Source: a virus. Taken from it: DNA of 44,109 nucleotides. The position numbers and the translations under genes were made by a program. The notes under the pieces were generated by a model, which saw only the letters and a list, made by a program, of their open reading frames with translations, did no database searches and had not been told where the DNA came from. Each line of letters opens with the position of its first letter. Position 1 is the first letter of the stretch. Location: the IMG/VR virus record IMGVR_UViG_3300025812_000003; one strand, written 5' to 3'. Positions 10,960 to 39,124 of the stretch are shown one piece after another.

Positions 10960-13900
10960 TTATGCTTTATCCAGCTTTTCCAGCTCCTCTTTCAGCACGG
11001 CACGGTCCCGCTCGACCTGCGACCACCCCTTCCGGTAGGTCTCGTCCATCGAGGCCCCCTTGGTGAAATGGTGGTGGGTCAGCCTGGCGGATTCGTCCCT
11101 GAACGCCTCCCCGAGCCTCGACGCCTTGGCCCAGAGGAGGTTGTCGCACCCCACGTGGTGGAATCTCTCGGAAAAGACCTCCCCGAGCCTGTCGAACAGG
11201 TCCTTGCGGATGAGAAAGTGCTCACAGGCGTTTCCCCCGTCCGGGAGCAGGGGGCCCGTGTTGACCGCCACGAGCCCGTGCTCCCTTGACGACAGCGCCG
11301 CCCGGTAGAGACACCACGGGTCGGAGAACTCCACGTCGTCGGCGGCGAAGAAGAAGGCGGCGGCCTCGGCGGCCCTGCACATCCGGTTGACCTTCACGGG
11401 CACGGTGTCGGTGGTGCCGTCCACCAGGATCGTGACGAGGTGCTTCGGGTAGTACAGCCCATCTATCGAGTCCACGCACCGCCTCAACCCCTCCGGCCTT
11501 CCCAGGGCGGGGATGACGAAGGCGACGCGGGGCAGGTAGTCCTTCTTGCTGTAGTGGGCGGCGTCGACCCACGACTTCATGCAGTGGTGGAAGAGCCTCG
11601 TGTTGGGGGTGACGTTGATGGTGCCAGTCCGGTGGTTGTAGGGCGTGAAGTACTCCGGGGGATAGACCGCCACGCCCGGATGCCCGCTCCCGCCCTCCTT
11701 TACCAGGGGGGTGAAGACCTCCGTCGCGGCCGCGAAGGGGAAGTCCTCGTCCCCCTTGAATTTGCTCTCCATGAGCCTCATCTGCTCCCGGATCAAAGGA
11801 TGGTTCGGGATCGAGCCGATGGGGGAGTTCCCGACCCATCCGTCCTCCCCCGTGCCCACGAAGAGCGAATGGCCCAGCATGTCGTCGAAGCTCCTGCCGG
11901 GAAGGACCTCCTCGTCCAGGTCGCAGTAGATTCCCCCGCGTTCCGCCAGCTCGTGGAGCCGCCAGTAGTCCGAGACGTTGACCCATTTTTTAGCAGCCAC
12001 ACCGGCGTCCATGTAGGGGATTCCCCTGGGCAGGTCCTTGAGGGTGAGGACCTGGTGCTCGTACCCCCCCATCGCCCTCTGCGTGGCCAGGCACTTCCCC
12101 ATGGCGGGCGGGATGCCCCCGTCCTCGGACAGCCATATGTTGAAGATCCTCCTGGGTATGGGGGCCCTGCCCAGGCTGGCGGACCCGGGCTCCTTGACCC
12201 ACGACTTCAGGAAATGGTGGAAGGTAATGCTATGGCTGGTGACGTTGGTCCTGCCGGTCTGGTGGTTGTAGGGGTAGAAGACCTCCGGAATGCACACGAG
12301 GATGCCCTCGTCCTTGCTGGCGGCGGCCAGGATGCGGGGGGTGATGATCTCCAGGGAGGACTCGAAGTTCTTGTCGTCGTCCCCCCTGAACTTGGCTACG
12401 ACCTCCTCCAGGTGCGCTTTGAGGAGCGGATGCCCCGGCTCCGCCCCCATGACGGCGGTGGACACGAAGCCGTTCTCCTCCCGCCCAGCGAACAGCGAGC
12501 GGCGGAGCAGCCCGCGGAAATCCTTGCCGGGGAGGATCTCCACGTCGGCGTCGCAGTATATGCCGCCCCGCTCGATCAGCTCGTGTATGCGGACGTAGTC
12601 GCACGCCTTGACCCATTTCTTGGCCCCGATGGCGGCGTCCAGGTAGGGGATGCCCTTCGGGCAGTCGCCCAGTCCGATGACGTGGTGCTCGTATCCCTCG
12701 ACCGCCCTCTGGCTGGCGATGCACTTCCTCACGAGGTCCGGCATGCTTCCGTCCTCGGAGAGCCAGACGGTGAAGATGCGCCTGGGAATCCTGTCGGGCG
12801 GCTCGGACCTCGTCTCCTTGAACCAGATGCTCTCGCACTTTTCCGTCCCCGGGACACACTCGTCCACCGCCTCGCAGACGCCCATCCAGGTGCCGGGGAG
12901 GTAGTCGTGCCCCGACAGGACGACATCGGCCATGTCCCGCCACAGCCCGATGTCCTCCTTGACCTCCTCCTTGGTGTGCCCGGCGTCGATGAACACCATG
13001 CCGAACCTGCGCCCCTCGACGGCGCACTTGGCGGCGGCCTCGCGGCTCGTCATGCGCAGGACTTCGAGGTTCTTGAAGTGCCCGACGTTCTTCGTGAACG
13101 TGGCGAAGATGTCCTCCGCCTTCGCCATGGCGTTGGTCTGGTCCCTCGGGTCCACGGAGCCCTGGAAGGTGTCGACGCACGTCACCGTGCCCTTGCACCC
13201 GGACAGCAGGGCGTGGGTGCTCCTCCCCTTCCAGCTCCCCAGCTCCAGGACGCTGTCCATCCCCTTGGCCTTCTCGTAGAGCCAGTTGAGCTCGCCGATG
13301 CTCATCCACCCCTCGATGCCCTGGTCCTTGTACTCGTAGTCCCGGGGATAGTAGAACTGCCTTTCAGCCTGGTACTTCGGGTTGGCCGGGTCGTAGGCGA
13401 ACGCCTTGTCGTAGTGCTCCTTCGACCGCGCCTTGTCGCCGAGCCACCACAGCGCCCAGTACAGCTTCTCGTGCGGCTCGTAGGTGTAGTGCGCCCCGAG
13501 GTTGCAGTAGCAGTCGTTCGGGGGTATCTCCAGGGCCGCCGAGCAGTAGCAGGCGACCTTCTGCGGGTCGTTCTTCCTCCAGTAATGGTCGGCGAGGCGG
13601 AGCAGCGGCTCCCTGCGCGTCCCGTCCGCCAGGAACGCCCTGTGCCAGGAGTCGAGTGCCTTCCCCTCCTCCCCGAGCGCCATCCATGCGTCCCCGATGA
13701 ACACCAGCGACTGGCCCCTCTCCTGCGCCCACCGGTTCATAGCGACGTGGCGGGCCAGCTCCTTGATGGCGGACTTCGGCCTTCCCCTCCACAGGAGCTC
13801 GCGCCCGAGGTAGTGGGAGTTCCGGTCGTTGCCCTGGTTGAGGTAGCAGTCGAGCGCCAGCCCGGCGAGGTAGCGGTCCCTGTGCGGGTCGTTGTCGGGC

Positions 13901-14502
13901 AACTGGAAGTGCTCCAGGAGGAGGACACTCGGGGGGAGGTAGGTGCGCTCGGCCTCGCCCACCAGGACCTCGTGGACGATTCCCTGCCAGCGCATCTTCC
14001 TGCGGTCGTACATCTTGCACTGCTTGAACTGGACGGCCGGCTGGCCGTTGGGGTAGTGCGAGAAGACGAAGTGGAACTCCATCTGCTCGTAGCCCCGCCT
14101 GACGGCCTCCTCGATGGCGTCGATGTCGCACACGGAGAATTGCTCGTCGCAGTCGGGCATCGAGACGACGTCGTTCGTGGCCAGGAAGGCGGAATGGTTC
14201 CTGGCGGCGGCATAGTTGAACAGCCTGTCCCCCTGGCGGACTATCGGGGCCTCCCCCTCCACAACGAACCGGGCATTGATCTTGTCCGCGATGCCGGGGG
14301 GCATGTCGAACATGAACTTGTCCCCCACGCAATGGACGGAGAACCCTGCGGCCCTGCCAACCTCCACGGTCCCGTCCGTGGATCCCGTGTCCACAAGGAC
14401 CACCTCGCCCCCCCGTCCCAGGAACCCCCCCAGCGAGGCGATCAGCCGCGGGAGCGTCCTCTCCGCGTTCTTCCCTATCAGGCACACGCTGAAGTTGACC
14501 AT
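10960..14502 (-). CDS. multidomain glycosyltransferase: GT2 + TPR + class I methyltransferase + two DxD (GT32-like) domains + GT2-like domain
   Basis: SVCLIGKN..LVDTGSTDGT..AARN..DCDE; TPR-like helices; VLELGSWKGRST..VFIDAGH..SGHDY; twice IPRRIF.WL..ERGGIYCDxD; C-terminal VAFVIPALGR..AADD. Confidence 0.85.
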   Translation of the reverse strand: MVNFSVCLIGKNAERTLPRLIASLGGFLGRGGEVVLVDTGSTDGTVEVGRAAGFSVHCVGDKFMFDMPPGIADKINARFVVEGEAPIVRQGDRLFNYAAARNHSAFLATNDVVSMPDCDEQFSVCDIDAIEEAVRRGYEQMEFHFVFSHYPNGQPAVQFKQCKMYDRRKMRWQGIVHEVLVGEAERTYLPPSVLLLEHFQLPDNDPHRDRYLAGLALDCYLNQGNDRNSHYLGRELLWRGRPKSAIKELARHVAMNRWAQERGQSLVFIGDAWMALGEEGKALDSWHRAFLADGTRREPLLRLADHYWRKNDPQKVACYCSAALEIPPNDCYCNLGAHYTYEPHEKLYWALWWLGDKARSKEHYDKAFAYDPANPKYQAERQFYYPRDYEYKDQGIEGWMSIGELNWLYEKAKGMDSVLELGSWKGRSTHALLSGCKGTVTCVDTFQGSVDPRDQTNAMAKAEDIFATFTKNVGHFKNLEVLRMTSREAAAKCAVEGRRFGMVFIDAGHTKEEVKEDIGLWRDMADVVLSGHDYLPGTWMGVCEAVDECVPGTEKCESIWFKETRSEPPDRIPRRIFTVWLSEDGSMPDLVRKCIASQRAVEGYEHHVIGLGDCPKGIPYLDAAIGAKKWVKACDYVRIHELIERGGIYCDADVEILPGKDFRGLLRRSLFAGREENGFVSTAVMGAEPGHPLLKAHLEEVVAKFRGDDDKNFESSLEIITPRILAAASKDEGILVCIPEVFYPYNHQTGRTNVTSHSITFHHFLKSWVKEPGSASLGRAPIPRRIFNIWLSEDGGIPPAMGKCLATQRAMGGYEHQVLTLKDLPRGIPYMDAGVAAKKWVNVSDYWRLHELAERGGIYCDLDEEVLPGRSFDDMLGHSLFVGTGEDGWVGNSPIGSIPNHPLIREQMRLMESKFKGDEDFPFAAATEVFTPLVKEGGSGHPGVAVYPPEYFTPYNHRTGTINVTPNTRLFHHCMKSWVDAAHYSKKDYLPRVAFVIPALGRPEGLRRCVDSIDGLYYPKHLVTILVDGTTDTVPVKVNRMCRAAEAAAFFFAADDVEFSDPWCLYRAALSSREHGLVAVNTGPLLPDGGNACEHFLIRKDLFDRLGEVFSERFHHVGCDNLLWAKASRLGEAFRDESARLTHHHFTKGASMDETYRKGWSQVERDRAVLKEELEKLDKA

Positions 14503-15680: not shown

Positions 15681-16451
15681 CTACAGGCTGCAAATACCGC
15701 CGGATGGCGATCCCGGAACGTCCGCCACGACCGGGGGGTAGGCGGACAGCCTGTTCTCGTGGGGGTAGCCGAACGGGTTCGCGACGACCCTGGTCCCGCC
15801 CATCGTGCGGTCGTATGGGAGGTGGGTGTGCCCGTACACCCACAGCCTCGGCTGCTTCTCCAGGATCAGGCTCGTGAGGTCCGAGACGAAGAACCGGTTG
15901 AGGTTCTCCCTGTCGTCCCTGTAGCGCGGATGGATGGCCAGGATGGACGGGACGTGGTGGGACAGCACGACCGTGCCCTCCCGGACGAGCCTCCACGCGG
16001 CCTCCTGGAAGGCCCCGTTCTCCGTATAGACCCAGTCGGCGAACCCCCTTATCTGAGAGAAGTCGTTGAGCTTGTGCCTGTGGTACCAGTTTTCCTTGTC
16101 GAGCGGGAACCAGAGGGTGCCCCCGAAGAAACGGACGCCCTCGACGGTCTCGTCGCCGTTCCGCAGCCAGTGGAAGTTCGGGGGCATGGCCTCGGACAGG
16201 ACGGCCTCCGCCTCCTCCTTGGAGCCGCCGTAGTACTCATGGTTTCCCGCGACGAACACGGCGTGCCTGGCCTTGCTGGAAAGGAAGCCCAGCACGTCCT
16301 TGATGGCTTGGGGGCTTTGTCGGCAGGGGACGACGAGGTCCCCGGGAAGGAGGAGGAAATCGAGGTTCGGCTCGAAGGGGATGGTCTTGAGGAACCTGAC
16401 CGGGTCTGGGTAGAATTCAGAATGTAAATCTGAAAGTAGCTGTGCCTTCAC
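15681..16451 (-). CDS. calcineurin-like metallophosphoesterase
   Basis: SDLH, PGDL, GNHEYY, SHH, GHTH motifs. Confidence 0.9.
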   Translation of the reverse strand: MKAQLLSDLHSEFYPDPVRFLKTIPFEPNLDFLLLPGDLVVPCRQSPQAIKDVLGFLSSKARHAVFVAGNHEYYGGSKEEAEAVLSEAMPPNFHWLRNGDETVEGVRFFGGTLWFPLDKENWYHRHKLNDFSQIRGFADWVYTENGAFQEAAWRLVREGTVVLSHHVPSILAIHPRYRDDRENLNRFFVSDLTSLILEKQPRLWVYGHTHLPYDRTMGGTRVVANPFGYPHENRLSAYPPVVADVPGSPSGGICSL

Positions 16452-16699
16452 TTGTTCTTCTCCATGTAGTCTAATACCATTTTCACCTCATCAATGGTTG
16501 CATCTCCTTTAAGAACATTGGCACGATATGAGATGACAAACACGTTTCCTGAAATATACCCTTTACTGTTGTTGATGCGATCCAAAGAAGGAGAGTTTGG
16601 ACCCGCTTTACCCCTAGATAAATATAAAGGAATCCCCAGGACTGGACAAATGTCGGGAACCACTATATCTTCAATCTTAATGGTAGATGCCTCTACCAT
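16448..16699 (-). pseudogene. truncated HNH-type homing endonuclease (nuclease end only)
   Basis: AT-rich; PDICPVLGIPL..SPSLDRINNSKGYISGNVFVISYRANVLK closely parallels the C-terminus of 38495-39124; N-terminal part absent. Confidence 0.65.
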
Positions 16700-16720
16700 A
16701 TAATACTGAAAGTCAAAAAA

Positions 16721-16795
<75 letters not shown>

Positions 16796-16803
16796 TTCTA
16801 TTT

Positions 16804-17005
16804 AAGGGCGCGGCAGTCAAGATTTGGGCCGGGGGCCAACGCCGGTCAGCGGCGTGGTGGACTACCAACCATCATCAACGGCGAAAACGAACCACCAACC
16901 ACCGACAACCAACAGTTCCCTAACAGGCTCACGCCCGCAGTGTAACCCTGCCGACTATCTTTATCGTCGGAGGCCAGGTAAGGCTTTCCGACTAGCCGCG
17001 CTCTT
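16804..17005 (-). ncRNA. unassigned ~200-nt structured RNA with GU-repeat loop
   Basis: 5' GCGCGGC-U-AGUC pairs with 3' GACU-GCCGCGC; internal hairpins CCGAC/GUCGG, GCGGGC-GUGA-GCCUGU, ACGCCG/CGGCGU. Confidence 0.6.
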
Positions 17006-17032
17006 CCGGGCGGCCCCCGTCAACTTGGCTGC

Positions 17033-17344
17033 CTACTCCTTCTTGGCCGGCACGAGCTCGCCGAGGACGTCCTCGTTGGGCTCGTATCCCTTGATGGCCG
17101 CCACGGCGTTGGTCGCCTTGATGGCCATGTCCAGCTTCCGGCGCTCGCGGGCGATGTTGGATATGAGCCTGTCCAGGGCCACGACGTCGTACGTCGGCTC
17201 GACCTTCTCCGGCGTGTCGCCCTTCAGTCCGCGATAGGTCGTCCGTGCGGCGGAGTTCTCGTTGCGCAGGCCCTGGAGCTCGGCGTGCCGCTCGGCCAGC
17301 GTCTTCGCCCACGTGAGCCCCTCGTTGATCGTCATCTTTGTCAT
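17033..17344 (-). CDS. DUF6847/DIP1984-like coiled-coil protein
   Basis: MTINEGLTWAKTLAERHAEL..PTYDVVALDRLISNIARERRKLDMAIKATNA; RBS GGAGG; own promoter motif at 17364-17372. Confidence 0.6.
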   Translation of the reverse strand: MTKMTINEGLTWAKTLAERHAELQGLRNENSAARTTYRGLKGDTPEKVEPTYDVVALDRLISNIARERRKLDMAIKATNAVAAIKGYEPNEDVLGELVPAKKE

Positions 17345-17378
17345 GTCCGTTTCCTCCCGAAGCACAATACCGAAAAAT

Positions 17379-17678
17379 TCGTGGACCGGTAAGCCGAATT
17401 CTGTCCCTCTTGCGAGGTGGCAACCATTCGTCTGGGACGGCCGTCGCCGGCCGCCTCAAGCTCGCTACCCGAGGGTGATGCGGGCCGGGCAGGCCCTCCC
17501 CTCCTATTTGCGATTGCTCCGCATGAAGCTTGCCGCGTTTCACTCCGGACCTAACCGGCTCGTCTCTGTGGCGCTGGTTGTCACGCCTTGCGGCGTGCCG
17601 GGGCGTTACCCCGCATGCTGCCCTATGGAGTTCGGACTTTCCTCCCCCCCTCACGGGGCGGCGGTTGCCTGGTCCACA
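17379..17678 (-). ncRNA. rnpB: RNase P RNA (compact bacterial type A-like)
   Basis: GAGGAAAGUCC and ACAGAAUUCGGCUUA P4 signatures; AGCGCCACAGAGA and GUGAAAC conserved regions; P1 GUGGACC/GGUCCAC; GGCAACC/GGUUGCC P2. Confidence 0.95.
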
Positions 17679-17680
17679 AG

Positions 17681-18094
17681 CTAGGCTGCCTGGAACTCCC
17701 CCTGCCTGACCCCCTCCTCGTACCACGAGGCCCAATTGGCCATCTCCCTGAGCGCGAGGTCGGGGTCCAGGTACACCCCCGCGCACGTCCCGCGCCCTCC
17801 CGGGGCGAACATCCTGCGGACCAGCGGGCTCATCCGCTTGATGTCCCCGATGCCGAGGGACAGGAGCTCGAAGTCGGGGCCGGGCGGGAAGCACGGCGTG
17901 CCGTCCCCTCCCTCGGGGGCCTCCTTGAGCCGGAACGATATCCTGCGCTCGGCGGGGAGCGAGACAGCGACCGACACGTCGTCGTCGTACCTGCCCGCGG
18001 ACGACGCCCTGAGCCGGGCCTCGAAGATCGGCTCCTCGGTCCTGTAGAGGCGCTTCACCAAGTCCGCAGCGGATGCCCTGCTTGCATTGTCCAT
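17681..18094 (-). CDS. hypothetical protein
   Basis: ATG 18094 after GGAGG; fills the gap between ssrA and rnpB. Confidence 0.55.
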   Translation of the reverse strand: MDNASRASAADLVKRLYRTEEPIFEARLRASSAGRYDDDVSVAVSLPAERRISFRLKEAPEGGDGTPCFPPGPDFELLSLGIGDIKRMSPLVRRMFAPGGRGTCAGVYLDPDLALREMANWASWYEEGVRQGEFQAA

Positions 18095-18135
18095 TTTCGT
18101 ATACCCTCCAGTCAAATACCAGGGATCACGGAATC

Positions 18136-18493
18136 TGGTGGAGGCGGGGGGAGTCGAACCCCCGTCCGAGGAGTCCCACGATCAGGAGACTACACGCTTG
18201 TCCCGGTTCCACTGCCTTCGCCAGCGCCCCAAGGTACCGGGCGATGCAAGGACGCTGGCTAACTTTCGGAAATTCGCCCCGGCCTGCAAGCTTCGCCGGA
18301 GCTACTCTCGCCATATCAACGCCCCGTCCCCTGCATGCGAGCCTGGAGGGGGAGGCGTGGCCCAGATGTCTCTAGGCCATTGCGTACATAGCAAGTGGTT
18401 TTGCGTCTGTACTTTCCATCCCTGTTGCGGGCGGCATGGTCCCCCGGCGTGCCTCCTGGACACGAGCGCTCCCGTCGAAACCGGAACGCCCCC
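18136..18493 (-). ncRNA. ssrA: tmRNA; predicted tag (A)AKPLAMYAMA at 18404-18372
   Basis: 5' GGGGGCG..GGUUUCGAC, 3' GGUUCGACUCCCCCCGCCUCCACCA, G3:U70 pair, 358 nt, internal GCA-initiated short frame. Confidence 0.95.
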
Positions 18494-18527
18494 ACAGTTG
18501 TATGATACAACGAAAAGCCAAGCAACT

Positions 18528-18621
18528 TGGTCCCGGCGTCAGGAGTCGAACCCGATCCATGCTCTAATCTGGAGCTTATGCGGTTTATAAGACCGCTCGT
18601 TCGGCCGCAAACTTCGCCGGG
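18528..18621 (-). tRNA. atypical tRNA with UAU (Ile) anticodon and long variable arm
   Basis: CCCGGCG/CGCCGGG-ACCA; GCGGT-CTTATAA-ACCGC; ~24-nt extra arm with GCUC/GAGC stem; TTCGACT loop. Confidence 0.8.
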
Positions 18622-18691
18622 CAAAATAACGGGCGGGACATCAGCCTATAAAGCCGCCCCGAAGGGCGGCACATTCGCTCCCGCCCGAAAA

Positions 18692-18768
18692 TGGTACCGT
18701 CGACGGGGCTCAAACCCGCTAATGCCCTGGTTGAAAGCCAGGGGACTCGATGCTTCGTCTTCGACGGT
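18692..18768 (-). tRNA. tRNA-Glu(UUC), non-canonical D and T loops
   Basis: ACCGTCG/CGACGGT-ACCA; CCTGG-CTTTCAA-CCAGG; T-loop TTTGAGC; no GG in D-loop. Confidence 0.8.
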
Positions 18769-18773
18769 AAAAC

Positions 18774-18926
18774 GAGGCGATGGCCGATGCCGTTCGGCAA
18801 CAGGCCAACGGCAGCCACGAAGACTGCCGACTGCGCGGCCACTCGGTTTCTCTCCTGCCCCGATCCGCTGCGCCGGAACTCCAAGGAGACTCTGTCCGGC
18901 CGCTCCTTGCCAGCCTTCATCGCCCC
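18774..18926 (-). ncRNA. unassigned ~153-nt multi-branched RNA between tRNA-Cys and tRNA-Glu
   Basis: GGGGCGAUG/CAUCGCCUC closing stem; GCGGCC/GGCCGC; CGGCAGUC-UUCG-UGGCUGCCG; UGCCG-AA-CGGCA. Confidence 0.55.
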
Positions 18927-18929
18927 AAC

Positions 18930-19005
18930 TGGAGCACCCGGAGGGACTCGAACCCCCGATTAGAGGCTCTGCAGGCCTCCGCCTTTGCCGCTTGGCCACG
19001 GGTGC
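18930..19005 (-). tRNA. tRNA-Cys(GCA)
   Basis: GAGGC-CTGCAGA-GCCTC; U73; CCA. Confidence 0.93.
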
Positions 19006-19011
19006 CAAAAC

Positions 19012-19113
19012 CTACTTCGGGTCCACGCCAAACCACCAGCCGCGCGGCTTGGTGATGAACCACAGCCCGGCCAAAAAGGCCAGGAGATAACCGGATGCGA
19101 CGACCCAATACAT
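19012..19113 (-). CDS. 33-aa membrane microprotein (not in ORF track)
   Basis: MYWVVASGYLLAFLAGLWFITKPRGWWFGVDPK; RBS GGAG; fills the spacer exactly. Confidence 0.55.
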   Translation of the reverse strand: MYWVVASGYLLAFLAGLWFITKPRGWWFGVDPK

Positions 19114-19122
19114 GGGCACTCC

Positions 19123-19323
19123 CTATTCTTCCGCCACGTCCTGTTGGAAAATCCTCCTGAGCTTGAGCTGCGTGGCCCTTCCCAGGCGGCAGAACTCCAC
19201 CACCACCCAGCTTGCGGTGTGGGCGATGAGCCACCCCACCACTATCCACTGGGTGATCCGGTCGAACAGCCTGACCGGCTGGACGTGATACAGCTCCCTG
19301 CAAAACTCAAAGAAAGAACCCAT
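19123..19323 (-). CDS. small membrane protein
   Basis: RBS GAGGAGG; hydrophobic WIVVGWLIAHTASWVVV. Confidence 0.6.
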   Translation of the reverse strand: MGSFFEFCRELYHVQPVRLFDRITQWIVVGWLIAHTASWVVVEFCRLGRATQLKLRRIFQQDVAEE

Positions 19324-19385
19324 CTCTCGGCACCTCCTCGGACGGCTGGTTGGGTCGCCCTCGGCGATGCCAAGGACCCGGATTT

Positions 19386-19460
19386 TGGTAGCCTGTGGGG
19401 GTGTCGATCCCCCTTCCCCAGGTTGAGAACCTGGGATCCTAGCCGGTAGACGAACAGGCC
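19386..19460 (-). tRNA. tRNA-Glu(CUC)
   Basis: CCAGG-TTCTCAA-CCTGG; T-loop ATCGACA; CCA. Confidence 0.9.
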
Positions 19461-19467
19461 GAAAACT

Positions 19468-19543
19468 TGGTGGAAGCGAAGGGATTCGGACCCTCTGCCT
19501 CGGCGTTGCGAGCGCCGCGCTCTCCCAATTGAGCTACGCTCCC
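19468..19543 (-). tRNA. tRNA-Ala(CGC)
   Basis: CGGCG-CTCGCAA-CGCCG; G3:U70; CCA. Confidence 0.93.
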
Positions 19544-19544
19544 A

Positions 19545-19619
19545 TGGTGCGACCTACAGGAGTCGAACCTGTCGCTCCTTCCGTGTCAGGGAAGGCGTCT
19601 ACCGCTGGCATAAGGCCGC
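19545..19619 (-). tRNA. tRNA-Val(GAC)
   Basis: CTTCC-CTGACAC-GGAAG; TTCGACT; ACCA; weak D stem. Confidence 0.9.
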
Positions 19620-19627
19620 ACGAAATT

Positions 19628-19706
19628 TGGCGGTCTGTACGGGATTCGGACCCGTGGTCTCTGACGTGACAGGTCAGCGGGGACGACCAGGCTCCCCTAA
19701 CAGACC
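19628..19706 (-). tRNA. tRNA-Asp(GUC)
   Basis: CTGAC-CTGTCAC-GTCAG; G73; CCA. Confidence 0.93.
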
Positions 19707-19713
19707 GAAAGAC

Positions 19714-19833
19714 TGGCGGCAAGGCCGGGATAGCTTTGGCCCCCTGCCCGGACGTGGTATCCGGAAGCGCTGGGACGCTCGCTTTATCCGACTTGACCCA
19801 GCACCCGACCCGCAGGCCGGGCCGCCAGATGCC
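19714..19833 (-). ncRNA. unassigned ~120-nt CCA-terminated multi-arm RNA
   Basis: Ends UUGCC-G-CCA, 5' GGCA can close it; arms CCCGGCC/GGUCGGG, GCUGGG/CCCAGC, CCGGA/UCCGG, GGCC/GGCC; no TTCGA loop. Confidence 0.5.
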
Positions 19834-19839
19834 GAACCT

Positions 19840-19915
19840 TGGTGGACCCGGGGGGGCTCGAACCCCCGACCTCATGGCTGCCGGCCATGCGCTCTCCCGG
19901 CTGAGCTACGGGCCC
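19840..19915 (-). tRNA. tRNA-Ala(GGC)
   Basis: CATGG-CCGGCAG-CCATG; G3:U70; CCA. Confidence 0.93.
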
Positions 19916-19922
19916 ACGAAAA

Positions 19923-19996
19923 TGGAGCGGGACACGGGACTCGGACCCGTTTCTCTGGCTTGGAGGGCCAGGGCACAACCCATATACCAGTCCCGC
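19923..19996 (-). tRNA. tRNA-Gly(UCC)
   Basis: CTGGC-CCTCCAA-GCCAG; U73; CCA. Confidence 0.9.
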
Positions 19997-20004
19997 TCAA
20001 AGCT

Positions 20005-20079
20005 TGGTGGACCCGGAGGGAGTCGAACCCCCGACCTCTGCATTGCAAGTGCAGCGCCTTCCCGCTCGGCTACGAGCCC
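20005..20079 (-). tRNA. tRNA-Ala(UGC)
   Basis: CTGCA-CTTGCAA-TGCAG; G3:U70; CCA. Confidence 0.94.
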
Positions 20080-20081
20080 AC

Positions 20082-20144
20082 GGGATGCCTCGGGTCATTG
20101 CTTTATTCGGACGTGGCCGACTTGCGCAGACGCCAAAACATCCC
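20082..20144 (-). ncRNA. structured inter-tRNA spacer
   Basis: 12-bp stem GGGAUGUUUUGG/CCGAGGCAUCCC (with G:U pairs) enclosing UGC..UCGG/CCGA..GCA. Confidence 0.4.
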
Positions 20145-20151
20145 ACGAACC

Positions 20152-20226
20152 TGGAGCGGGCGAGGGGAGTCGAACCCCCCACCTGAGCCTTGGCAAGGCC
20201 CCACTCTACCGCTGAGCTACGCCCGC
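20152..20226 (-). tRNA. tRNA-Gly(GCC)
   Basis: GGGCC-TTGCCAA-GGCTC; U73; CCA. Confidence 0.95.
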
Positions 20227-20234
20227 CCGAAACT

Positions 20235-20313
20235 TGGTACTGGGGGTGGGATTCGAACCCACGATATGCCTGTTTGTAGGACAGGAGGCTTTGGCCGCTC
20301 GCCGCACCCCAGT
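20235..20313 (-). tRNA. tRNA-Val(UAC)
   Basis: ACTGGGG/CCCCAGT-ACCA; CCTGT-CCTACAA-ACAGG; TTCGAAT. Confidence 0.88.
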
Positions 20314-20323
20314 AAATCCCCCC

Positions 20324-20361
20324 AAAAATGTAAAAGGCGCTGGAAACCTCCCAGCGCCCTC
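20324..20361 (-). terminator. attenuator terminator (3:4 hairpin) directly upstream of the tRNA array
   Basis: GAGGGCGCUGGGA-GGU-UUCCAGCGCC-UUUUACAUUUUU. Confidence 0.8.
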
Positions 20362-20383
20362 GGAACCTTGGATTGGCCTCTTC

Positions 20384-20500
20384 CTACCCAATCCCTCCGT
20401 CCGAGGGCCGAATATCGCCCTCGACCATGCCACTCCCGCACACGGCAGCGGCTTCCGCCGCTGCTATGCATTCTTCGCGTCCTATGGCCAGTGCCTTCAT
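20384..20500 (-). CDS. 38-aa leader peptide of the tRNA array (not in ORF track)
   Basis: MKALAIGREECIAAAEAAAVCGSGMVEGDIRPSDGGIG; RBS GAGGGA; overlaps antiterminator segments. Confidence 0.7.
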   Translation of the reverse strand: MKALAIGREECIAAAEAAAVCGSGMVEGDIRPSDGGIG

Positions 20501-20514
20501 GTTCCCTCGTCCAT

Positions 20515-20540
20515 ATAATACCTCCCGTAGTCGAAAAATC
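20515..20540 (-). promoter_or_regulatory. promoter of leader/tRNA operon (AGGTATTAT -10 motif)
   Basis: Matches the GGTATT(A/G)T motif repeated upstream of minus-strand units. Confidence 0.65.
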
Positions 20541-20606
20541 GCGGGAAATCTTCATGGGCTGGCTTTCCGCCCGGAAGCCAGCCCCTTGCAGTCGGGTTCT
20601 TCCGGC

Positions 20607-21272
20607 TCATTTCCGCCGCAGGACTCCCGCGATACCCAGGAGGCCCATGCCGACGAGGCCGAGGCTGGCGGGCTCCGGCGTGGACGAGACGTCCCCGGTC
20701 CAGGTCCCGAGCCCGGTCCAGTAGTTCGGGTAGCTGCTCCAGCCGTTGTAGTTGCCGTACACGTTGGTGCCGTCGCCGTCGCCGGGCTGGCCTTCCCATT
20801 TGGTCGTTACGAACCCACCGGAACAATATGGGTACCCAGGACAGGGCCAGCCGATTATCGGGCCGGTGTAGTTGTCGATGTTGAAGTCCCAATATTGGAT
20901 GCCGTCCTTGTCGGTGGTCAGGGAAAACACGCTGACGACCCCGAAGGCGTCGGGACCAGCGACGAAATTGGCCAAGTCCCACACAGTCCTCCCGTCCGTA
21001 AAGCTGTAGTCGATGATCGTGCCTCCGGGCAGCGTATCGGGCTCAAGACTGTAGGTGCGGTTCGACTTGAGCGGGGACGACAGGGTGAAGTAGCCGCTGA
21101 CCCCGCCAAGCCCCCAGCCCCCCACGTACCAAAACTGGTCGCCGGTGTACGTGTAGGTATAGGTCTGCGAAATCGCCATGGCTGGTGCCAGGGCTGCCAG
21201 GAACAATGCGATGGTCAACAACAATCTGACTGCTTTGAGTGCAAACTTGCGACTGCCGCTGCTTTCGGTCAT
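20607..21272 (-). CDS. PEP-CTERM sorting-domain surface protein with signal peptide
   Basis: N-terminal LLLTIALFLAALAPAMA; C-terminal TPEPASLGLVGMGLLGIAGVLRRK; RBS AGGAGG. Confidence 0.9.
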   Translation of the reverse strand: MTESSGSRKFALKAVRLLLTIALFLAALAPAMAISQTYTYTYTGDQFWYVGGWGLGGVSGYFTLSSPLKSNRTYSLEPDTLPGGTIIDYSFTDGRTVWDLANFVAGPDAFGVVSVFSLTTDKDGIQYWDFNIDNYTGPIIGWPCPGYPYCSGGFVTTKWEGQPGDGDGTNVYGNYNGWSSYPNYWTGLGTWTGDVSSTPEPASLGLVGMGLLGIAGVLRRK

Positions 21273-37028: not shown

Positions 37029-38492
37029 ATGCCGGATCAGAACGTCATCTTCGCCGTCCAGCAGCAGTGCCAACTACAGGGTGTATCCTCCTCGCTGGCC
37101 AAGGCGGTGCTGAACAACGAATCATACGGGGGGGTACAGTTCAATCCCGATGGGACGACGCTGACCAGCTCCGCCGGGGCCCTGGGGGCCATGCAGGTGG
37201 AGCCAAAGACGGCGGCGGGCCTTCCGCCTCCCTACAATTCCGCGTCGCTCGATTCCATAGACGGGAATGCCGCCGCCGGGGTGGCGGTCCTCAGCCAGTT
37301 GCAGAAGGAGTATCCTAACGACCCGGCCAGGCAGCTCGCCGCATACGATGCCGGGCCCACGGCGGTCAACAAGGCCACCAACCTGTACGGGGACGACTGG
37401 CTCTCGCACCTTCCCGCGGAAACGCAGAAGTACGTGCAGAAGGGGCTCCCCACTGCCACGGGCAATGCCGCCCCCGCCGTGCCTTCGAGCAGCGACGCCA
37501 CCGGGAACACGGGGCTGCCCCCGCTGCAGTTCTCCAGGGAGGCCTCCCAAATCCAGTCCGTCGTCCTCGAACAGCCCACCGTGGACTTCAACGTCCTGTT
37601 CCCGGACGTGATCAACCCGGACGGGCTCGACGAGGTGCCGTGGTACTCGGACAGGAGCCTCGTCACCGGCAACCCCAAGGTCAGGGGCTCCGTCACGCCG
37701 GTGGTCTTCGAGATCGCGCTCAAGGGAAGGGACGTCGAGCTCCTGTCCGACAGCTCCGGCGCTCCGATCCAGGTGCAGCTCAACGCTTCGATGAAGAACT
37801 TCAACGTGGCCATGAAGCACGTCTTCACCCCGCAGCGCACCCGCACGGGCTGGCACATAACGATGTGGGGGATGCAGGCCGACGTCATCACCGGCAACTG
37901 CACGACCGGCGTCTTCATGAACCAGTTCGGGCTCACGGACTTCTTCAGCACCGCCGTGGCGGACGACCAGGTCACGCAGCTCGTGACGAGCGGCTTCAAG
38001 GTCTTCCAGTCCGGGGCGGGGAGCTTCCCCGACCTGGCCGACCAGCGGGCGTCGGGCGTGGTGGAGGAGAGGCTCATACAGGACGACACGACGTTCTACA
38101 ACCAGCAGATAGGGCTGATAGCCGGGACCCCGGACCCGAGCGAGGCGTTCCGCGTGGCGGCGCAGGACGCGTTCATGGAGTTCCTCCTCATGTTCAAGAA
38201 CAACGGCATCTACTGGCTCAACAACCAGGGCGGGATGTGGGGGAAGAAGGAGCAGGTGGGGGTGGACGAGTGGTCCCCCGAGGTGGCGCTCTCCGCCACG
38301 GCCAAGAACGCCCGGAACAACGACGTGGCGACCAGGGGGACGGTGATGATGAAGTTCAGGGGTTCGACTTATAGCGGATACTTCAAGAGTCTGACTTGGC
38401 AGATGGATGCCCAAAATCCATTCAAATTTGATTTTAATTTCGTATTTCAGGTGGAGAGGACCTTGGGATACATGTTTTCCCCAGCGTGGTAA
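37029..38492 (+). CDS. lytic transglycosylase (SLT) domain fused to baseplate/tail-initiator-like domain
   Basis: AVLNNES, SSAGALGAMQV, GNAAAG, LAAYDAGP, ETQKYV; beta-rich C-terminus YSGYFKSL..PFKFDFNFVFQV. Confidence 0.8.
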   Translation: MPDQNVIFAVQQQCQLQGVSSSLAKAVLNNESYGGVQFNPDGTTLTSSAGALGAMQVEPKTAAGLPPPYNSASLDSIDGNAAAGVAVLSQLQKEYPNDPARQLAAYDAGPTAVNKATNLYGDDWLSHLPAETQKYVQKGLPTATGNAAPAVPSSSDATGNTGLPPLQFSREASQIQSVVLEQPTVDFNVLFPDVINPDGLDEVPWYSDRSLVTGNPKVRGSVTPVVFEIALKGRDVELLSDSSGAPIQVQLNASMKNFNVAMKHVFTPQRTRTGWHITMWGMQADVITGNCTTGVFMNQFGLTDFFSTAVADDQVTQLVTSGFKVFQSGAGSFPDLADQRASGVVEERLIQDDTTFYNQQIGLIAGTPDPSEAFRVAAQDAFMEFLLMFKNNGIYWLNNQGGMWGKKEQVGVDEWSPEVALSATAKNARNNDVATRGTVMMKFRGSTYSGYFKSLTWQMDAQNPFKFDFNFVFQVERTLGYMFSPAW

Positions 38493-38494
38493 CT

Positions 38495-39124
38495 ATGTAT
38501 TATCCAAAGAAAAGCGAAGCTCTCAAGAGAATGTGGAAAAACCTCAGCCAGGAAGAATACAACCACAAAGTTTCTGGTGTTCGGGCCTTGGGAGTCAAAC
38601 GTATCATCAATCGTATTGGTTTACGCTACGGCAAACTAACTGTTGTTGCCTCTGCTGGTCAAAACAAGCATGGTCAGCTCATGTGGGAATGTGTTTGTGA
38701 TTGTGGAAACAGAATCCCCACCATCGTTACGGGAAATCAGTTGGGCTGTAAAAAAACCATTAGTTGTTCGAATTGTGGTAGGAGTAGGCAAGGTCGAAGG
38801 ACTCACGGCAAAACAAACACCGTTGAGTATAGAATGTTTCAAAGAGTTAAAACAAGGGCTAAAAGAAAAGGCATGGAATTCAGCCTGAAATTCACAGATA
38901 TTGTCGTCCCAGATGTTTGTCCCGTTTTCGGAACCCCGCTCAAGCCCGGTACTCATAAGGATTACGACTTTAGTCCTTCTTTGGATCGTTTGGACAACTC
39001 CAAAGGATATATCAAAGAAAATGTGTGGGTTATAAGCAAAAAGGCCAACATGATAAAAAACAACTCCACGCTTCCTGAATTGAGGGCTTTGGTGTCCGCC
39101 TTGGAAAGGCGGCTAAAGGAATAG
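38495..39124 (+). mobile_element. free-standing HNH-type homing endonuclease
   Basis: IGLRYGKLTVV..WECVCDCGN..SC; CPVFG..SLDRLDNSKGYIKENVWVIS..N; sharply AT-rich. Confidence 0.85.

Follow-up and report, generated by a model that had tools for sequence, protein, structure and literature searches.

An intact bacterial type-A RNase P RNA gene in the tRNA/tmRNA block of a jumbo phage

Why should a phage carry a gene for the RNA of ribonuclease P (RNase P), a universal and essential ribozyme? The question is raised by a stretch of viral DNA of 44,109 nucleotides (nt), IMG/VR record IMGVR_UViG_3300025812_000003, which as a whole we call the window. An earlier note, made from the letters of this DNA, had reported in it an unambiguous RNase P RNA gene (rnpB) close to ssrA, the gene for transfer-messenger RNA (tmRNA). 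We find that positions 17374–17680, on the minus strand, are an intact bacterial type-A RNase P RNA gene situated in the transfer RNA (tRNA)/tmRNA block of a jumbo phage, and we asked in turn how complete the gene is, where it came from, whether it is maintained as an RNA and what it might do.

A full-length RNase P RNA gene in phage DNA

Searched against Rfam at the curated gathering thresholds, the window matches RF00010 (RNaseP_bact_a) over the 307 nt of this gene with 203.2 bits (E 1.6e-64), twice the cut-off of 100 bits, and these 307 nt cover model positions 1–367, which is the full length. The tmRNA gene beside it matches RF00023 with 120.6 bits (E 1e-46; cut-off 47 bits). The covariance model for bacterial type-A RNase P RNA, proposed by the earlier note as a check, thus confirms its reading of an rnpB gene near ssrA, with the gene limit at 17374 rather than 17379.

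The fold is complete in nearly every element. When helices are drawn on the sequence, P1, P2, P3, P5, P7–P12 and P15–P19 are complementary, as are the pseudoknots P4 and P6, the sole mismatch being one G-G in P3; P4 has all eight of its pairs complementary around a bulged U. The Rfam alignment matches the CR-I to CR-V consensus motifs, and the sequence reads GGGUA in L15, so that the GGU pairing with the tRNA CCA is present, and GNRA loops in L18 and L9. Escherichia coli M1 RNA and Thermotoga maritima P RNA share with this RNA helices P1–P5 and P15–P18, the P4 and P6 pseudoknots, CR-I to CR-V and the GGU of L15. In contrast to these two RNAs, however, the window rnpB has no stacked P13/P14 and a much shorter P12.

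This difference bears on class membership, as stacked P13/P14 helices are a type-A element of the specificity domain, or S-domain (PMC1874661, in the part available). The S-domain of the window rnpB has a P12 hairpin of 14 nt and lacks P13/P14 altogether; in the Rfam alignment, 10 nt stand in place of 28 model positions in the P12 stretch and 14 nt in place of 49 in the P13/P14 stretch, which agrees with the earlier description of a compact RNA with a short P12 and a reduced P13/14 region. Native betaproteobacterial members of RF00010, described below, also lack P13/P14, so these helices are not required for membership. Archaeal type-A RNase P RNAs work with several proteins. They resemble the window rnpB in the missing P13/P14 and, unlike it, have no P18 (PMC4919922, as far as the available part goes), whereas the window rnpB retains P18, capped by a GNRA loop, and its score is that of a bacterial RNA.

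The DNA around the gene is that of a phage. Over 40,734 aligned bases, a near-identical IMG/VR record, G001 (64,871 bp, CheckV completeness 20%), shows 55 differences from the window, all of them outside rnpB. The window, extended by the 24 kb of upstream sequence in G001, encodes a portal protein, DNA polymerase, primase, UvsX-like recombinase, DnaB-like helicase, ribonucleotide reductase, topoisomerase, HNH endonucleases, a tail fibre and an SLT lysis protein. For the DNA polymerase, the best match is Tunturiibacter phage Tunturi_5, with 45.7% identity across 89% of the protein, while the next matches reach about 25%; by this comparison, the nearest cultured relative of the window phage is Tunturi_5, an isolated 309-kb jumbo myovirus of Acidobacteriota. 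A blastn search of positions 16500–20500 against 50,697 GenBank phage records returned tRNA-sized matches only.

A chromosomal or chimeric origin of the region would have undone the earlier note's reading, and the same junctions were sought in assemblies of sequencing runs. Twenty peat or wetland DNA runs (2017–2025) contain 0.99 of the sampled words of 16650–20400, although the source sample may be among them and their studies may belong to a single campaign. In four of four such runs, positions 16768–18164 lie on one contig with no differences; this contig spans tRNA-Gly, the open reading frame (ORF) ORF110, rnpB, ORF144 and the end of the tmRNA gene, and its depth is that of its neighbours in each run (for example 113.7/108.6/114.1 and 350.6/319/354.4). 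With the same junctions in G001 and in all four runs at even depth, a chimera or a chromosomal fragment is very unlikely.

Bacterial and viral relatives of the gene

To place the short S-domain, we scanned one bacterial genome per species for the J11/12…J12/13 motif (at least 120 loci; an estimated 5500 stretches). Most of the matches listed lie on chromosomal contigs from Burkholderiales and other Betaproteobacteria, among them the genera Cupriavidus, Diaphorobacter, Polaromonas, Polynucleobacter, Nitrosovibrio, Variovorax, Collimonas and Massilia, and further matches come from Omnitrophota, Planctomycetes, candidate-phyla bacteria and Mycoplasmatales. Among the matches listed, the 3′ strand of P5 follows the J12/13 motif by at most 16 nt in 103 of 120, as it does in the window, and this leaves no room for P13/P14. 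A 14-nt P12 is present in many of these matches, and one peat Burkholderiaceae metagenome-assembled genome has a P12 hairpin identical to that of the window. In all five betaproteobacterial genomes that we checked, the short locus (303–341 nt, 210–254 bits) is the only RF00010 match and is hence the native gene of these cells. The native RNAs of Burkholderiales and Nitrosomonadales are thus of the same size as the window rnpB and, like it, have a 14-nt P12, no P13/P14 and a J12/13 that runs into the 3′ strand of P11. Judged from these sequences, the reduced P13/P14 and short P12 are the ordinary betaproteobacterial form and not a phage invention, and the small size of the window rnpB is not to be read as phage miniaturisation: in the clade to which it belongs, described below, shortness predates the capture. 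Early comparative work on proteobacterial RNase P RNAs reportedly noted the loss of P13/P14 in the beta group.

Two narrow pattern scans of IMG/VR, one for the CR-I motif and one for a short-S-domain motif, yielded further viral copies. The CR-I scan returned 31 contigs, 23 with RF00010 above the cut-off, and eight of these 23 copies are 269–325 nt long. tRNA genes flank seven of the eight short copies; the eighth, L034, has a tmRNA gene and a tRNA array about 430 nt away. The short-S-domain scan returned 25 contigs, of which 23 were new and 20 of these above the RF00010 cut-off, bringing the total from both scans to 43 loci above the Rfam cut-off. The earlier remark that phage rnpB is rare therefore fits the literature, in which we found none, but not IMG/VR. 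Many of the rnpB-bearing contigs are 100–463 kb long. Once duplicates were removed, there were 22 distinct short viral copies, including that of the window. In some other viral contigs (L038 299–572, L016 299–567), rnpB lies 0–4 nt from tRNA genes, and in these the 3′ end of rnpB would come from the RNase P cut at the next tRNA.

The copies closest to the window rnpB, at 81.6–81.7% identity, are L034, in record G007, and L044/L059, in record G011, which is 317 kb long and rated 99% complete. Both records share local gene order with the window and have rnpB at the same place. Their tmRNA genes are 71–77% identical to that of the window, and four neighbouring protein genes compared with G011 have DNA identities of 62–72%, below that of rnpB. 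A DNA polymerase 55–71% identical to that of the window phage is present in all five tested records of the 13-copy rnpB clade described next, and the closest polymerase, that of G011, accompanies one of the closest rnpB copies. These polymerase identities and the shared gene order fit vertical descent of rnpB in the phage lineage. In two records the polymerase match falls into two to three pieces within one long frame (G011:C1:217499-221644 and G006:C1:127464-131396), a pattern that fits an inserted element such as an intein.

We built a tree from 77 betaproteobacterial and 13 viral copies with four full-size copies from viral contigs as outgroup, leaving out nine other short viral copies and the non-beta bacteria as long branches. 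The 13 viral copies, including that of the window, form one clade (support 100/100), the stem of which measures 0.47 changes per column. This clade falls inside the Betaproteobacteria beside a Comamonadaceae/Burkholderiaceae/Sutterellaceae group, with enclosing nodes at 95/88 and 99/97, and in none of 200 bootstrap trees do the Betaproteobacteria form a monophyletic group. A single origin of all 22 short viral copies is not rejected by an approximately unbiased (AU) test (p 0.40); the nine long-branch copies change position between trees. Among the matches listed, the best identity of the window rnpB to a bacterium is 68.5% (Cupriavidus), and so low a value argues against a recent donor. From these comparisons we infer that the gene was captured once, long ago, from a Burkholderiales-like donor and was then passed down vertically in a lineage of huge phages.

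The 13 viral-contig rnpB genes are not only monophyletic but also under structural constraint. For a pairing test, the 22 viral copies were aligned with MAFFT, and helices drawn by hand on the window rnpB were projected onto this alignment, which was not itself fitted to structure. Of 1840 cells, 87.0% form standard pairs, compared with 64.7% after shuffling (0 of 500 shuffles as high), and both sides change in 76 of 92 pairs. When the partners were slid by 1–3 columns, 35–42% were paired, a control over which the structure is favoured because it was drawn from one row of the alignment. P4 is 100% paired with six of eight pairs compensatory, P18 is 97% paired with eight of eight compensatory, and P15, P16, P17 and P6 reach 94%, 82%, 91% and 87%. 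Low scores are confined to the outer P9, part of P3 and P19, which are length-variable loops where the alignment is unreliable. The bases of J11/12 and J12/13, which we take to be contacts to the tRNA elbow (T-loop), are invariant in all 22 phage copies.

Constraint is also evident when the window rnpB is set against its bacterial counterparts. Of the 106 columns with a conservation of at least 97% across the 77 betaproteobacterial genes, it keeps 100, and four of the six departures fall into two compensated pairs (P4, 49/284; P10, 102/155). Its two lowest P4 pairs are A-U, where its relatives mostly have G-C. P4 is nearly invariant across bacteria generally. In seven of the 22 viral copies, the window not among them, the two top P4 pairs are jointly swapped, from A-U to G-C and from G-C to U-G (alignment columns 137/607 and 138/606, the first of which is not among the 106 betaproteobacterial near-invariants). 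The window gene thus has the body of a native betaproteobacterial rnpB but differs from it in being phage-encoded in a genome with no rnpA, in its identity of at most 68.5% among the matches listed, in its grouping with 12 other viral copies on a long branch of their own, in the compensated exchange of the near-invariant P4 pair 49/284 and in the presence of a P19 hairpin.

These results bear on the possibility that the gene is passenger or artefact DNA, that is, a recent piece of a host chromosome, a chimeric assembly or an rnpB copy at an attachment site with no selected role. Such an origin could draw on the low best identity to any bacterium among the matches listed. However, the gene is of full length and not a 3′ fragment, its junctions recur at even depth in G001 and in four of four runs, and it occupies the same position in G007 and G011. 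It belongs to a viral clade that is monophyletic at 100/100, covaries strongly and is more conserved than the genes beside it, and no integrase match was found among the scanned ORFs. We consider a passenger or artefact extremely improbable.

A predicted role in tRNA maturation

The surroundings of the gene point to its likely substrates. All 12 tRNA genes that ARAGORN finds in the block, ten of which are also found by Rfam, lie on the minus strand between 16721 and 20313, and the earlier statement that all of them encode CCA is correct: the 3′ CCA is present in 12 of 12 and in the tmRNA gene as well. Six spacers within the block of nine tRNA genes are only 1–8 nt long. As tRNAs so closely spaced all have their CCA, cuts by RNase P would be the main step that separates them. 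In the available part of PMC4919922, RNase P is described as processing pre-tmRNA, and bacterial RnpA proteins as interchangeable between species.

The protein partner would have to come from the host. None of 11 phage records, seven of which are at least 90% complete by CheckV, gave a match to RnpA (PF00825), and none of six gave one to SmpB (PF01668). Neither family is present in G001 by a six-frame search, and the two long ORFs in the 3.4 kb of the window beyond G001 have no Pfam match, so the earlier observation that the window holds no rnpA or smpB stands. The same absences speak against the proposal, made in the earlier note, of a self-contained translation-rescue island: host proteins would be needed, and the island probably uses host RnpA.

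We predict the following course of events. The rnpB RNA is probably co-transcribed with the tRNA array and would bind host RnpA; the resulting holoenzyme would cut the 5′ leaders off the phage tRNA and tmRNA precursors and in doing so separate the packed, CCA-ending tRNAs. The phage copy would in this way secure or raise RNase P activity during infection. That this intact type-A RNA pairs with host RnpA and trims the phage's own tRNA and tmRNA precursors is, in our estimate from these sequences, fairly probable.

Dependence on a host protein could also serve another end. The phage RNA might compete with the host RNase P RNA for limited RnpA, re-aiming or throttling the holoenzyme as a form of host takeover. 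With RnpA in none of the 11 phage records, the holoenzyme must borrow the host protein, the phage clade has a long stem (0.47 changes per column) and evolves faster than the bacterial copies, and the two core P4 pairs swapped in seven of 22 viral copies hint at altered properties. The window copy, however, has a canonical P4 top and 100 of 106 near-invariants, so that nothing marks it as altered in specificity, and we regard such competition as unlikely. We also find no support for the suggestion of the earlier note that the ribozyme is adapted to non-canonical T and D loops of its own tRNAs: the S-domain is the native betaproteobacterial form, J11/12 and J12/13 are invariant, and the T-loop is canonical in eight of the 12 tRNAs (TCCGAnT in three, ATCGACA in one).

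The role might instead lie away from tRNA altogether, in cutting phage mRNAs or operon transcripts, or in acting as a decoy or replacement when the host RNase P RNA is removed by a defence or by shut-off. RNase P has non-tRNA substrates, including phage-induced RNAs (PMC4919922, again in its available part), and the window rnpB is flanked by two protein ORFs and not directly by tRNAs. In the wider viral set, however, rnpB lies within tRNA arrays and often abuts tRNAs, and both the CCA-binding L15 and the J11/12 and J12/13 bases presumed to touch the T-loop are kept. We know of no defence that targets RNase P RNA, and we regard a role of this kind as unlikely.

Several observations weigh against a captured gene that serves the phage's own tRNAs. 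If RnpA and not the RNA is limiting, as reportedly in E. coli work, extra RNA would raise no activity. The nearest cultured relative, Tunturi_5, has no rnpB by RF00010, by nhmmer --max with two profiles (best E 0.062) or by a CR-I/CR-V motif scan, and no tmRNA by ARAGORN; the paper describing it reports 43 tRNAs and, in the part available, does not mention RNase P, so a phage rnpB is dispensable for a large tRNA array. Tunturi_5 infects Acidobacteriota, whereas the window rnpB is betaproteobacterial in kind. A promoter scan of 16400–20700 gave three promoter-like sites (0.9 expected), none positioned to drive the array, and a terminator scan of the same stretch gave four terminator-like sites (4.2 expected), no better than shuffles. 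The sequencing runs listed for 16650–20400 include no RNA run. As to origin, monophyly of the Betaproteobacteria with the viral clade as sister is not rejected by the AU test (p 0.175), and in view of this disagreement with the bootstrap we place the viral clade within or sister to Betaproteobacteria; the bacterial rows of the tree were picked by motif, which biases the sample toward Betaproteobacteria.

Taking these points together with the evidence for descent and constraint, we lean on balance toward a fuller account, in which a ribozyme captured once from a Burkholderiales-like donor has been kept by huge soil and peat phages as a working, fast-evolving gene that borrows host RnpA, and which would be the first virus-encoded RNase P.

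Neighbouring features and significance

Table 1. Position and basis of features in and around the tRNA/tmRNA block of the window
Feature	Positions	Strand	Basis and remarks
RNase P RNA gene (rnpB), bacterial type A, betaproteobacterial short form, 307 nt	17374..17680	-	RF00010, helices, covariation, conserved columns
tmRNA gene (ssrA), one-piece, tag AKPLAMYAMA*, encoded CCA	18136..18493	-	RF00023, ARAGORN
Nine tRNA genes: Val-tac, Gly-gcc, Ala-tgc, Gly-tcc, Ala-ggc, Asp-gtc, Val-gac, Ala-cgc, Glu-ctc	19386..20313	-	Rfam, ARAGORN
tRNA-Cys (gca)	18930..19005	-	Rfam, ARAGORN
tRNA-Ile(tat)-like gene, 94 nt, long extra arm	18528..18621	-	ARAGORN; below Rfam cut-off
tRNA-Gly (ccc), downstream of rnpB and ORF110	16721..16795	-	Rfam, ARAGORN; position also occupied in G011
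Possible degenerate tRNA-Glu(UUC)-like element, CCA end	18692..18768	-	By eye; called by no tool
ORF144, 144 amino acids (aa), between tmRNA and rnpB	17681..18115	-	G+C at third codon positions (GC3) 0.90; stop codon abuts rnpB 5′ end
ORF110, 110 aa, DUF6847-like phage protein, directly downstream of rnpB	17033..17365	-	Weak PF20935 match; Atlas clusters viral and DUF6847
Protein of 221 aa with C-terminal PEP-CTERM sorting motif	20607..21272	-	PF07589, E 7e-6
Protein of 1180 aa: two glycosyltransferase domains, methyltransferase domain, TPR	10960..14502	-	
HNH/endonuclease VII-like gene	16448..16699	-	phrog_3322
HNH/endonuclease VII-like gene	38486..39124	+	phrog_3322

The features that accompany rnpB are collected in Table 1. 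The tmRNA, as read from the sequence, has the G3-U70 alanine identity pair and acceptor pairing. Its tag ends in YAMA, and that of G007 (L072 10328–10681) ends in YAFA, compared with the usual ALAA-type end; with YAMA/YAFA-type ends, recognition by the usual proteases might be weaker. The codons read by the tRNA block are almost exclusively of the GNN kind (Gly, Ala, Val, Asp and Glu), plus Cys and one Ile-tat, and the same restricted set is found again in the relatives G011, G007 and G012. The long extra arm of the tRNA-Ile(tat)-like gene is unusual for an Ile tRNA, and G007 has a 93-nt counterpart in the corresponding position. The tRNA-Glu(UUC)-like element has an 8-bp acceptor-like stem, a UUC anticodon-like loop and a fold z-score of -2.4; with acceptor and anticodon stems only and no clean cloverleaf, it may be a decayed tRNA-Glu, and G011 has a tRNA-Glu(ttc) in the corresponding stretch. 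Within 16700–20320, a short U-rich spacer motif of TTTCG type is found after most of the tRNA CCA ends and also after the tRNA-like element and the rnpB 3′ end; it might mark a common 3′ processing route for tRNAs and rnpB.

The two ORFs that flank rnpB were considered as its protein partner and set aside, as neither resembles RnpA or SmpB. ORF144 is an orphan, with no family, no tblastn match in G007, G011 or G012 and no usable Atlas match. ORF110 is 72% identical to the protein at the same place in G011, the only one of these three records in which it is conserved. Further away, the PEP-CTERM protein hints at a host with an exosortase system, and the 1180-aa protein is 68% identical over its first 424 residues in G011, up to the edge of the compared stretch. 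Of the two HNH/endonuclease VII-like genes, the one nearer to rnpB lies between tRNA-Gly and a phosphoesterase gene and has no tblastn match in the examined stretches of G011, G007 and G012.

That huge phages encode tRNAs, tmRNAs and translation factors is established (Al-Shayeb et al. 2020, PMC7162821, available part); the translation genes described there include SmpB, which the window phage lacks. The terms 'RNase P', 'ribonuclease P' and 'rnpB' are absent from the main texts, as available, of PMC7162821, PMC7824862 and PMC13282480 (supplements lay outside the search). The theta ribozymes next to gut-phage tRNAs, which resemble those of hepatitis delta virus (PMC10879173, available part), likewise tie a phage ribozyme to tRNA genes, but they are small, self-cleaving and unrelated to the trans-acting RNase P. 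A full-text literature search, with subscription journals outside its scope, found no paper on a phage-encoded RNase P RNA, and in the literature searched RNase P is described only for cells and organelles, not for viruses.

These findings have implications for both phage biology and RNase P. A conserved, vertically inherited rnpB in phages of 155–463 kb extends the phage takeover of translation, so far comprising tRNAs, tmRNA and factors, to tRNA maturation. The viral copies also give RNase P research a natural series of diverged yet constrained variants, in which even the catalytic P4 has undergone compensatory change. The betaproteobacterial form of the RNA is a pointer to the lineage of the donor and perhaps also to the range of hosts that these uncultured phages infect. 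If the predicted role is true, such phages would control their own step in freeing every tRNA from packed arrays.

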